The notes under the pieces: generated by a model
Told to the model about the DNA's origin: nothing
What the model saw: only the letters and a program-made list of their open reading frames with translations
Database searches by the model: none
Shown here: positions 29,533-31,544 of the stretch, piece after piece
Layout: each line of letters opens with the position of its first letter
How positions within the stretch are numbered: the first letter of the stretch is position 1
Translations under genes and position numbers: made by a program
DNA from: a virus
Taxonomy: Duplodnaviria; Heunggongvirae; Uroviricota; Caudoviricetes
DNA length: 43,509 bases
Strand: one strand, 5' to 3'
IMG/VR virus record: IMGVR_UViG_2703718810_000003

Positions 29533-29561
29533 TTGCATTCATGCAAAATGATTGTTACATA
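29533..29561 (+). promoter_or_regulatory. Candidate promoter (TTGCAT-N17-TACATA) for the plus-strand ibrA/ibrB-like operon
   Basis: AT-rich region ~50 bp upstream of the ibrA-like start. Confidence 0.4.
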
Positions 29562-29610
29562 ATATTACTTAATAAGTATAGGTTTTACCGTTTTATCATT
29601 AGAAGATTGT

Positions 29611-30837
29611 ATGTCAGGAACCATAACAAAAATCAGCACAGGGGAAAATGTTCTGTCAGCAGCAATCCATCGCATTGAATGGTTGTTCGAAACGTTTAAT
29701 GAGGTCTGCTTGTCTTTTTCTGGTGGCAAAGACTCTACTGTGCTTTTCCATCTTGTGGCAGAAGTCGCCAGTAGAAAAAAACGTCGTTTTTCGGTTTTAT
29801 TCATTGACTGGGAAGCCCAATATCAGTGCACGATTAATCATATCCAAAAGATGAGGGAAATGTACCGGCATGTGACAGACAATTTTTACTGGGTAGCGCT
29901 TCCTCTGACTACGGTAAATGGCGTCTCTCAGTTTCAGCCAGAATGGATATGTTGGGAGCCAGGTGTAGAATGGGTTCGTCAGCCACCAGATGACGCTATT
30001 ACAGATATGTCGTATTTCCCATTTTATCGGTATGCCATGACGTTTGAAGAATTTGTTCCGGCATTTTCTTCCTGGTTTGCCGGTAACCGATGTGGAGTGG
30101 GAATACTAACTGGTGTTCGTGCTGATGAATCGCTCAATCGCTTTATGGGACTGGTGTCTCAGCGCAAACTGAGATATGCAGATGATAAACCCTGGACCAC
30201 CGCTTCACCCGATGGTTTTTACTACACCATGTATCCATTGTATGACTGGAAAACAAATGATATATGGACGTATAACTCAAGAACCCGCGCCATCTACAAT
30301 CCCCTGTACGACCTAATGTACCGTGCCGGAGTGTCGTTACGCAACATGCGTGTTTGTGAGCCCTTTGGCCCGGAACAGCGTAAGGGGCTGTGGCTTTACC
30401 ATGTTCTGGAGCCGGAAACCTGGGCCAGGATGTGTGAGCGAGTGTCAGGGGCTGCCAGTGGCGCTCTTTATGCCAATGAAAGCGGTGCCTATTTTGCTCT
30501 GCGTAAACGAATCACAAAACCGGCTCATCATACCTGGCGCAGCTACGCAATGTTCATGCTGGATGTTATGCCAGAAAGAACAGCAGAACATTACCGTAAC
30601 AAAATTGCAGTCTACCTGCGCTGGTATCAGACGCGGGGCTTCCCGGATGATATCCCGGATGAACAGGAGAATGACCTGGGGAGCCGGGATATCCCGTCCT
30701 GGCGACGTATCTGTAAGACGCTCATAAAGAATGACTTCTGGTGCCGGACCCTCTCCTTCAGTCCGAACAAACCCCGGCACTATGAGCGTTATCTGCAACG
30801 AATGAAGGAAAGGAGGAAAGAATGGGGGATTCTGTGA
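29611..30837 (+). CDS. ibrA: PAPS-reductase-like PP-loop ATP pyrophosphatase (IbrA-like / DndC-like)
   Basis: 408 aa; PP-loop SFSGGKDS near N-terminus. Confidence 0.65.
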   Translation: MSGTITKISTGENVLSAAIHRIEWLFETFNEVCLSFSGGKDSTVLFHLVAEVASRKKRRFSVLFIDWEAQYQCTINHIQKMREMYRHVTDNFYWVALPLTTVNGVSQFQPEWICWEPGVEWVRQPPDDAITDMSYFPFYRYAMTFEEFVPAFSSWFAGNRCGVGILTGVRADESLNRFMGLVSQRKLRYADDKPWTTASPDGFYYTMYPLYDWKTNDIWTYNSRTRAIYNPLYDLMYRAGVSLRNMRVCEPFGPEQRKGLWLYHVLEPETWARMCERVSGAASGALYANESGAYFALRKRITKPAHHTWRSYAMFMLDVMPERTAEHYRNKIAVYLRWYQTRGFPDDIPDEQENDLGSRDIPSWRRICKTLIKNDFWCRTLSFSPNKPRHYERYLQRMKERRKEWGIL

Positions 30838-31466
30838 CGCCTGAGATGGATGTACTAAGCAACATGATTCGTCAGTACTTCAGTCGGGAACAGCCCGAAG
30901 AAGAGTCCATACGAGCCCTTAACCATCTGCGCAGGGTACTGCATGAAGTCAGTCCTTTTGCACAGGAGCCTGTAGACTGTGTGCTGTGGGTGAAAGCGGA
31001 TGAGGTGGTAGCCAACGATTATAACCCCAATGTCATGGCACCAAGTGAGAAGAAACTGCTGAAGCAGTCACTGGAAAAAGATGGTTTCACACAACCGGTG
31101 GTGGTGTCAGAGGAGAAGAATCATTATCTGGTGGTGGATGGTTTTCATCGTCAGTTATTGGGCAGAGAATCAGTTACAGGAAAACGTCTGAGGGGCTGGC
31201 TGCCTGTAGCCTGTATTAATCCAGAGAGAAAAGGGCAAGCCGCACGCATTGCCGCAACCATTCGACATAACCGGGCTAGGGGGAAACACCAGATAGACTC
31301 AGTGTCTGATATTGTAAGAGATCTTTCACGCTTGGGATGGGCAGATGAACGCATTGGCACTGAGTTGGGTATGGATCAGGATGAAGTACTGAGACTTAAA
31401 CAAATTAGCGGGCTAACTGAGTTATTTCAGGAAGTGGATTTCAGCCCGGCATGGACAGTTAAATAG
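30822..31466 (+). CDS. ibrB: ParB-like nuclease domain protein (IbrB-like / DndB-like)
   Basis: 214 aa; ParB N-terminal-type motif VVDGFHRQ; AGGAGG RBS; overlaps ibrA-like 3' end. Confidence 0.65.
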   Translation: MGDSVTPEMDVLSNMIRQYFSREQPEEESIRALNHLRRVLHEVSPFAQEPVDCVLWVKADEVVANDYNPNVMAPSEKKLLKQSLEKDGFTQPVVVSEEKNHYLVVDGFHRQLLGRESVTGKRLRGWLPVACINPERKGQAARIAATIRHNRARGKHQIDSVSDIVRDLSRLGWADERIGTELGMDQDEVLRLKQISGLTELFQEVDFSPAWTVK

Positions 31467-31519
31467 CAAGCTCGACTTACTCCCGGCAAGGCAACAAAAT
31501 GATAACTAATACAACTCAA

Positions 31520-31544
31520 GGGCGATTAATATCGCCCCTTTTAC
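31520..31544 (+). terminator. Intrinsic terminator after ibrB-like gene
   Basis: GGGCGAT-TAAT-ATCGCCC followed by CTTTTACT. Confidence 0.5.

Follow-up and report, generated by a model that had tools for sequence, protein, structure and literature searches.

The ibrA-ibrB operon and its signals

We analyzed a pair of genes, ibrA and ibrB, in a 43,509-nucleotide stretch of tailed-phage DNA (Caudoviricetes; IMG/VR virus record IMGVR_UViG_2703718810_000003). This whole stretch is called the window below, and coordinates refer to it unless another sequence is named. An earlier annotation, made from the letters of the sequence without database searches and here called the original prediction, had placed at positions 29533-31544 a module in which an IbrA-like enzyme of the phosphoadenosine phosphosulfate (PAPS) reductase family is paired with a ParB-like protein resembling IbrB. 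The features that we distinguish in this region are the following.

29513-31566, no strand assigned: variable ibrAB cassette of 2,054 nucleotides, the sole segment that lacks homology to the collinear O157:H7 prophage L180
29533-29561, + strand: putative weak promoter, TTGCAT, 17 nucleotides, TACATA, read from the sequence (matches of 3/6 and 3/6)
29611-30837, + strand: ibrA, 408 amino acids, with a PP-loop part of the PAPS_reduct clade (residues ~1-240) and the helical domain DUF3440 (~240-408)
30811-30816, + strand: Shine-Dalgarno sequence AGGAGG for ibrB, read from the sequence, within the 3' end of ibrA
30822-31466, + strand: ibrB, 214 amino acids, with an N-terminal domain of the ParB/Srx fold followed by a helix-turn-helix-like segment, LGMxxDEVxR
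31520-31537, both strands: hairpin GGGCGAT-TAAT-ATCGCCC, found by a terminator scan; the RNA folds into a stem of 7 base pairs

Searches with hidden Markov models bear out the proposed pairing of domains. IbrA matches DUF3440 (PF11922, E 2.7e-33) and PAPS_reduct (PF01507, E 2.3e-16) in Pfam, both above the gathering scores of these families, with a weak additional match to the PP-loop family, and in PHROG it matches phrog_2302, 'PAPS reductase' (E 1.4e-85). IbrB matches phrog_2159, 'ParB-like partition protein' (E 4.5e-83); its Pfam match to ParB_N (E 7e-4, 20 bits) lies below the cut-off of 26.3. The domain scores of both open reading frames (ORFs) are far beyond chance. The product of ibrA is a predicted PP-loop ATP pyrophosphatase or adenylyltransferase of the PAPS-reductase clade.

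The assignment to IbrA and IbrB also held. A protein of Escherichia phage PhiR5_2 that is annotated as IbrA shares 91.7% identity with the IbrA of the window. The corresponding + strand genes of a prophage in E. coli SCU-106, which is 100% identical throughout the region of the pair, are named 'phosphoadenosine phosphosulfate reductase' and 'IbrB-like domain-containing protein' by the NCBI annotation pipeline PGAP. Full-length identity to proteins of E. coli K-12 is 58% for IbrA with YbdN (b0602) and 59% for IbrB with YbdM (b0601). The pair is evidently an intact ibrA-ibrB operon and a mobile paralogue of K-12 ybdN-ybdM. The K-12 genes have the same order, an overlapping stop and start and the same motifs as the pair in the window, including MR[VI]CEPFG. 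However, ybdNM occupies a fixed core-genome place beside ybdL and the gene for a LysR-type repressor, CitR/YbdO, whereas the copy in the window is mobile and has no adjacent regulator. A similar distinction applies to ibrAB of E. coli strain ECOR-9, which has the architecture, gene order and overlap in common with the window: as far as the title of the paper describing it tells, the ECOR-9 copy lies on a genetic island, whereas the copy analyzed here is a 2-kb cassette in a lambdoid nin region. The gene family is already known; it has had a name since 2002, and the NCBI pipeline annotates it.

As had been proposed, the two genes form an opposite-strand operon: all long ORFs around the pair are on the - strand, and the pair alone is on the + strand. 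The ATG of ibrB at 30822 gives an overlap of 16 nucleotides with the end of ibrA. Because of this overlap and the AGGAGG sequence ahead of the ibrB start, the two genes are very probably translationally coupled.

The operon had also been credited with a promoter and a terminator of its own, and the evidence on this point is divided. The hairpin at 31520-31537 begins 54 nucleotides past the ibrB stop and is followed by CUUUU, a short tract of four U's; it is plausible as a likely, though weak, intrinsic terminator of the cassette transcript. In contrast, a strict scan for the sigma-70 consensus found no promoter at 29533, where the weak hexamers listed above are located. An own promoter for the cassette is nevertheless plausible from the sequence. 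The leader, i.e., the 98 nucleotides upstream of ibrA, has a G+C content of 26.5%. It also contains a perfect 6-2-6 palindrome, TTGCAT-TC-ATGCAA (29533-29546), that overlaps the putative -35 hexamer and may be an operator.

An exchangeable cassette in the nin region

The SCU-106 prophage provides the context of the pair. Preceding the pair in window order are - strand genes for a Q antiterminator, RusA, a DUF968 protein and a hypothetical protein. Following it, also on the - strand, are a small hypothetical gene, a DUF551 gene, Ea22-like genes, and genes for a DnaC-like ATPase and an O-like helix-turn-helix protein; the immunity region, an exonuclease gene and the integrase gene are located farther on. 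Based on this gene order and these strands, the pair lies in the equivalent of the nin region and opposes the early-right operon. The insertion in the nin region that had been predicted is thus confirmed, with positions 29533-31544 falling inside a somewhat larger cassette between the replication genes and Q of a lambda-like prophage.

We joined the two flanks of the cassette into a single query, which retrieved prophages of O157:H7 strains, and then compared window positions 29000-32100 with one of these, L180, using blastn. In this collinear prophage, homology stops at window position 29512 (84% identity) and restarts at 31567 (95%). The same slot of L180 (its positions 2322-2745) is occupied by a 424-nucleotide cassette that carries hokD, a type I toxin gene. 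Because the flanks are homologous to those of the O157:H7 prophage and hokD lies between them there, we regard positions 29513-31566 as an exchangeable cassette. The slot is evidently a moron exchange point, in view of its changing content, its flanks with 84-95% identity and the opposite orientation of its genes. The G+C content of the cassette is 0.47, as compared to 0.52 for the window.

When copies of the pair in other E. coli contexts are compared, the common part consists of the coding region only (window 29604-31465; 205-2066 of the query), at 83-88% identity. Since copies elsewhere match in the coding region only, the leader and the terminator appear to be particular to this context. 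The clean swap with hokD is the one property that sets this copy apart from others.

Distribution and pairing of the two genes

The pair is very widespread, occurring in prophages, a phage reported as lytic, plasmids, core-genome positions of Enterobacteriaceae and Listeria, and many bacterial phyla. A DNA-level match is present in approximately 40% of complete E. coli genomes (2,140/5,426), and relatives are encoded on 868 plasmid records. In a Klebsiella virulence plasmid, ibrAB adjoins iroBCDN, with Hok genes alongside. The loci examined in Enterobacter, Klebsiella and Kluyvera correspond in core-genome position to ybdNM, with ahpCF, methionine-salvage genes and a LysR gene nearby, and the Listeria core gene pair lmo1309/lmo1310 is also related. 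Homologues additionally occur in phages of Streptococcus, Flavobacterium, Mycobacterium, Arthrobacter and Bacillus. Phage FCL-2, which carries homologues, is described as lytic and as having no integrase or repressor; the function is therefore not confined to lysogens.

One plasmid is worth describing individually. In the F-type (IncF) E. coli plasmid p100 (L018, positions 3916-9856), ibrAB is located ~1.3 kb downstream of a gene for a YadA-like (Eib-type) trimeric autotransporter. A gene of the OmpA family is also upstream of ibrAB in p100, which is of interest beside the activation of Eib that has been reported (see below).

We retrieved related loci with an alignment of 10 IbrA sequences (A2). 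An initial set numbered 99 loci, of which 80 came from genomes spanning many phyla and 16 from viral contigs; two were on plasmids and one was in a chromosomal region of E. coli. In 96 of these loci, genes for IbrA and IbrB are neighbours on one strand, most often with that for IbrB second and the two overlapping; the remaining three loci end at a contig edge. The pairing extends to a large sister clade of IbrA that has alanine at the position corresponding to residue 249: all 40 diverse viral loci of this clade have an IbrB homologue, within ~1.3 kb or, in two loci, upstream.

One lineage of the alanine clade differs. Approximately 40 near-identical viral contigs (L100-L139) encode an IbrA homologue of this clade, with no IbrB-like gene within 4 kb. 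Among all 179 related loci, IbrA is clearly unpaired with IbrB in this lineage alone.

Clustering of all neighbouring genes revealed no further universal partner. However, three kinds of accessory genes recur within the operon, the third being the cupin gene described below. A gene for an SNF2-family helicase is immediately upstream in 18 loci, and a gene for a small GNAT acetyltransferase is found in 19 loci, either upstream of ibrA or between ibrA and ibrB.

Several variants of the operon were observed. In two loci (L081, 5704-7440, and L082, 2960-4696), IbrA is fused to a C-terminal GNAT-like domain, giving a protein of 578 amino acids, while the GNAT protein is free-standing in 17 others. 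Approximately 20 viral loci (within L152-L179) have a gene for a cupin of the Ectoine_synth family (PF06339, E 3e-43, ~125 amino acids) between both genes; among the sampled loci, this EctC-like cupin was seen solely with the alanine-249 clade of IbrA. In two other loci (L059, 499-1626, and L068, 4838-5971), a long variant of IbrB (375-377 amino acids) is encoded upstream of ibrA. The long variant has an extra C-terminal domain that is rich in cysteine and histidine, with motifs WECHKAGFY and HSCEHYLTNK, and the domain has no match in Pfam.

A Pfam census of the 119 genes immediately flanking 60 diverse loci found SNF2 alone to be recurrent and no signature of a defence island. We accordingly rejected a defence-island context, to the extent that a census of nearest neighbours can show this. 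We also considered whether unusually long IbrA homologues are informative fusions and rejected this idea; Pfam detected no domains besides PAPS_reduct and DUF3440 in these proteins, apart from a single ABC fragment that is probably a misassembly.

Conservation and structural relatives of IbrA

The PP-loop of IbrA, SGGKDS (residues 37-42), is intact in the window and invariant in our alignments. Residues D66, E68, R170, E173 and S174 are invariant or almost so in alignments of 38 to 120 homologues. Homologues that are 28-55% identical also keep T74, the R170-x-x-E-S motif, D217, Y233 and several tryptophans.

The cysteines show a different pattern. The close clade of IbrA has an invariant C249 within the motif MR[VIL]C[EQ]P[FY]G, along with C368 and C378, which are almost invariant. 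The full triad occurs in 108 of 120 close relatives, whereas among 77 representatives of clusters at 50% identity just 4 have it. Because the triad is rare in the family as a whole and the alanine-249 clade is still coupled to IbrB, a reaction shared by the family cannot hinge on C249, C368 and C378.

In a fold search, the structures nearest to the N-terminal domain of IbrA are those of CysD, the PAPS domain of eukaryotic-type FAD synthase and CysH, all of the PAPS-reductase clade; adenosine phosphosulfate (APS) reductases also match, and TilS, TtuA and GMP synthase are more distant. IbrA is 15-21% identical to CysD, FAD synthase and CysH. Unlike these relatives, it has no CysN GTPase partner, no flavin mononucleotide (FMN) or MoCF domain, and it has DUF3440 as an extra domain. 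Neither profile nor fold comparison of DUF3440 with the PDB yielded a significant match, and no solved structure is available for close homologues of either IbrA or IbrB. The scores of IbrA with the curated CysH, CysD and DndC models are in the range of 16-39 bits, against cut-offs of 154-414.

Conservation and fold of IbrB

For IbrB, we used an alignment of 31 diverse homologues (A4). It has 27 invariant columns, and since the IbrB of the window is its reference row, these are present in the window by construction. No variation is seen in the motifs NxYNPN, DGxHR, HNxARGxH and LGM..DE..R across a range that spans Enterobacteria, Clostridia and Bacteroidota, and the 50 N-terminal amino acids are the variable part. 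Because these motifs are invariant across phyla, the constraint on IbrB better fits an enzyme or a nucleotide switch than a simple repressor.

A profile of IbrB matches the N-terminal domains of Spo0J and Noc at an E value of about 1e-7, and the ParB-fold kinases SerK and SbnI weakly. The similarity to the N-terminal domains of ParB, Noc and Spo0J includes the GxxR box (DGFHR in IbrB, as compared to GERR), and a helix-turn-helix follows. However, IbrB differs from canonical ParB in that there is no ParA partner nearby, no ParA-binding peptide and no C-terminal dimerization domain; the protein ends past the helix-turn-helix. The motifs NxYNPN and HNxARGxH further distinguish IbrB from ParB, Noc and Spo0J.

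Literature on the family

Our literature search found no biochemical study of IbrA and IbrB or of YbdN and YbdM. This outcome agrees with the view expressed in the original prediction that the biochemical function is undefined, and YbdM was still called 'completely uncharacterized' in 2022 (PMC8764527). The caution of the original prediction is justified, although the functions that it suggested (modification of DNA or nucleotides, anti-defence or regulation) cover too much ground to be refutable here. The possibilities can be narrowed by the operon partners (GNAT, cupin and SNF2 proteins), the lack of family-wide cysteines and the swap with hokD.

The sole phenotype reported, by Sandt et al. 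2002 as summarized in PMC7649339, is that ibrAB activates expression of prophage eib genes. We noted no eib gene in the window, and none is annotated in its SCU-106 relative, which is collinear only over 23979-43509. In K-12, ybdNM is under the control of H-NS and CitR (PMC9068703). CitR/YbdO represses ybdNM, and deletion of ybdO raises ybdN by 5.5 log2 units, along with the flagellar and cys regulons (PMC9068703). These data are indirectly compatible with an activity that consumes sulfur. Because deletion of citR alone derepresses ybdNM in K-12, the question of the chemistry is directly testable.

A 2025 survey of the ParB-CTPase fold found that its members bind CTP, ATP or GTP and that phage proteins in which the fold is fused to DNA methyltransferases are frequent (PMC12704722). 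This survey names neither IbrB nor YbdM (PMC12704722). IbrB was probably missed because it is under the Pfam cut-off that was used there.

A proposed function

Our preferred hypothesis is that IbrA and IbrB form one ATP-dependent unit that modifies nucleic acid and is directed by IbrB. We advance it tentatively, and we would give it less than an even chance of being correct. Within this hypothesis, DNA is the favoured substrate, and RNA or a nucleotide is less likely. Pairs of ParB-like and PAPS-reductase-like proteins have reportedly been described as predicted DNA-modification systems in papers from the Aravind laboratory.

The mechanism might operate as follows. IbrB, with its ParB/Srx nucleotide-binding fold and its helix-turn-helix, would bind DNA and position or gate IbrA. 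The PP-loop of IbrA would split ATP into AMP and pyrophosphate, adenylating an oxyanion; this chemistry is modelled on that of relatives, in which the adenylated group is sulfate (CysD), a phosphate (FAD synthase) or, as proposed, DNA (DndC). A nucleophile would then displace the activated group, and in the close clade this nucleophile is perhaps sulfur borne by Cys249. Where other lineages have a GNAT or ectoine-synthase-like partner, that enzyme could elaborate the product further. DNA marked in this way would be read or restricted differently. Such a mark on DNA would account for the activation of eib as a consequence. The antisense orientation of the cassette suggests that it is expressed in the lysogen, when pR is off.

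The evidence for an ATP-dependent modifying unit consists of the invariant PP-loop residues, the PAPS-reductase fold, the invariant motifs of IbrB and its match to ParB/Noc N-terminal domains, the near-obligate pairing, the translational coupling in the window and the accessory enzymes encoded within the operon. The rise of ybdN and of the cys regulon in the ybdO deletion strain is only suggestive. In particular, the embedding of GNAT and EctC-like genes in the operon points to small-group chemistry. There is also precedent for ParB-fold proteins as partners of DNA-modifying enzymes or in fusions with them, namely DndB, DpdB and the phage ParB-methyltransferases (PMC10853773, PMC12704722).

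It is important to consider a number of points that weigh against this hypothesis. In the literature that we searched, no modified base or backbone, ATPase activity or DNA binding is reported for any member of the family. There is no conserved cysteine family-wide, and Cys249 is replaced by alanine in the sister clade that is coupled to IbrB; since the triad is not family-wide, transfer of sulfur cannot serve as the chemistry of the whole family. The SNF2 gene is perhaps a mere neighbour, i.e., a helicase gene of the replication module. Instead of DNA, the pair might act on RNA, a nucleotide or a protein. The helix-turn-helix of IbrB and the eib phenotype suit a plain regulator equally well. 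Finally, the strict sigma-70 scan gave no promoter for the cassette.

A more far-reaching conjecture, which we consider doubtful, is that IbrA and IbrB are the core of a widespread and uncatalogued system of nucleic-acid modification that is distinct from Dnd, Ssp, BREX-4 and Dpd. In such a system, a ParB-fold switch operated by nucleoside triphosphates (NTPs) would deliver an adenylyltransferase to DNA, and the adducts would be diversified by GNAT proteins, cupins and SNF2 translocases. If this is true, one or more new modifications of the DNA backbone or bases would exist.

Alternative explanations

The alternative that best survives our analysis is that the pair is a regulator or anti-silencer, in which IbrB loads onto AT-rich, horizontally acquired DNA that is silenced by H-NS and opens it for transcription, and IbrA does no more than make, remove or sense the nucleotide ligand. 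IbrB would thereby act like VirB-type proteins, which are ParB-family DNA binders that are switched by NTPs. This explanation is possible but somewhat improbable in our estimation. It fits the only phenotype reported, activation of Eib (Sandt et al. 2002, as summarized in PMC7649339; a label in SEED says the same), as well as the control of ybdNM by H-NS and CitR. The HTH-like tail and ParB/Noc-like N-terminal domain of IbrB are what a regulator might have, ParB folds are known NTP switches (PMC12704722), and ibrAB of p100 is beside an Eib-type adhesin gene. However, the pair occurs with catalytic-looking invariant motifs in Bacteroidota, Clostridia, Actinobacteria and Elusimicrobia and in their phages, and most of these phyla are not known to have H-NS. 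A PP-loop enzyme of 408 amino acids with an invariant ATP site would be a costly 'co-factor', and the GNAT and EctC-like enzymes in the operon, or fused to its products, favour chemistry. Moreover, the C-terminal dimerization domain of clamp-forming ParB is missing from IbrB.

A second alternative is that the cassette is a module for defence, exclusion or addiction. According to this idea, it would be a moron expressed in the lysogen that protects host and prophage against other phages or plasmids and, for example, combines a ParB/Srx nuclease or NTPase with IbrA as a sensor or ATP-depleting effector, or else a stabilizer resembling a toxin-antitoxin system. The hokD toxin gene in the same slot of the sister prophage and the Hok genes beside the Klebsiella plasmid copy are suggestive of such a role, as is the nature of the pair as a self-contained, mobile two-gene unit on prophages and plasmids. 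TASmania flags the Listeria pair lmo1309/lmo1310, a case of guilt by association. Roles of ParB/Srx nucleases and NTPases in conflict are known (PMC10853773), and overexpression of YbdM lowers the growth rate by 10% (PMC8764527). However, deletion of ybdM is near neutral (PMC8764527), and no defence-island signature was present in the census of immediate neighbours described above. In PADLOC-DB v2, no system was matched by both proteins, and the similarity is restricted to weak domain matches (BrxP 4.5e-8, DndC 6e-5, PglX 0.004). Homologues also exist at core-genome positions (ybdNM by ybdL, and the Listeria pair) and in FCL-2, which is reported to be lytic. We therefore regard this alternative as unlikely.

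The third alternative follows from the original prediction, which likened the domain pairing to DndC and DndB: the pair might perform true phosphorothioation of the Dnd or Ssp type, with IbrA as a minimal DndC or SspD that writes sulfur into the backbone and IbrB in the role of DndB. The likeness is present at the level of superfamilies. DndC and DndB (and likewise SspD and BrxP) combine a PP-loop enzyme of the PAPS-reductase superfamily with a protein of the ParB/Srx superfamily, and a role on DNA is plausible for IbrA and IbrB. The DGFHR of IbrB also resembles DGQHR, which we take to be the corresponding motif of DndB, at this level only. However, the likeness does not extend to the level of families. 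IbrA scores 16.2 bits with the DndC model TIGR03183, against a cut-off of 290.4, and 20 bits with the DndC model of PADLOC. The DndB models of NCBIfam and PADLOC give no match to IbrB at E <= 0.01. No dndA, dndD, dndE, ssp or BREX partner genes were found in the window or in the neighbour census of the 179 related loci. DndC is defined by a [4Fe-4S] cluster on three cysteines plus a cysteine dyad (PMC10853773). In IbrA, DUF3440 takes the place of the DndC-specific regions, and there is no family-wide cysteine cluster or dyad; the cysteine triad of the close clade is missing from most of the IbrB-coupled family. In addition, the nearest structures, CysD, FAD synthase and CysH, are free of clusters. 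Because the scores are far under the cut-offs and the partner genes are absent, 'DndC/DndB-like' describes a superfamily resemblance and not membership, and we judge phosphorothioation of this type to be quite improbable.

Lastly, the suggestion that IbrA is an auxiliary metabolic gene product, namely an assimilatory PAPS reductase (CysH) that boosts the sulfur metabolism of the host, has in its favour the product names in PGAP and PHROG and the fold match of the N-terminal domain to CysH and APS reductases, but is hardly credible given the low scores with CysH-type models (NF002537, 37.6 bits against a cut-off of 154; TIGR02057, 33.5 against 254.2; TIGR00434, 32.1 against 165.1), the canonical ATP-binding SGGKDS loop, the additional DUF3440 domain of 170 amino acids and the near-obligate ParB-like partner gene. 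ECG(L/I)H, which we take to be the C-terminal motif of CysH, is not seen in the IbrA sequence. The label 'PAPS reductase', when understood as sulfur metabolism, is probably misleading for IbrA in viromes.

Other features of the window

Given the identity of the pair region to the SCU-106 prophage, we considered whether the window corresponds to this prophage throughout, and rejected this possibility: the two are collinear only over 23979-43509 (19.5 kb), at 99.86% identity. Window positions 1-23979, in comparison with SCU-106 (L181), are a mosaic of segments with 93-99% identity and gaps. The insertion sequences IS66 and IS200 of SCU-106 are absent from the window.

Downstream of Q, two tRNA genes are located at 25011-25172 on the - strand. 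One is an arginine tRNA with the anticodon TCG, and the other has the anticodon CAT and is assigned to methionine by ARAGORN and to isoleucine by PGAP. Also downstream of Q is a gene for a DNA methyltransferase of 352 amino acids (25213-26271, - strand). Farther downstream is an ORF of 662 amino acids (20847-22835), whose counterpart in SCU-106 bears the annotation of a carbohydrate esterase of the SASA family. This layout of tRNA, methyltransferase and esterase genes past Q resembles the backbone of Shiga toxin (Stx) phages, although we noted no stx gene.

Just outside the cassette, a - strand ORF at 31633-31737 encodes a hydrophobic peptide of ~34 amino acids, MSDDISLAMEGALAVIVVVGVYCLVVLLMDRLGS. 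It is annotated 'hypothetical' and is kept in the O157 prophage. It may encode a toxin-like product or a small membrane peptide.

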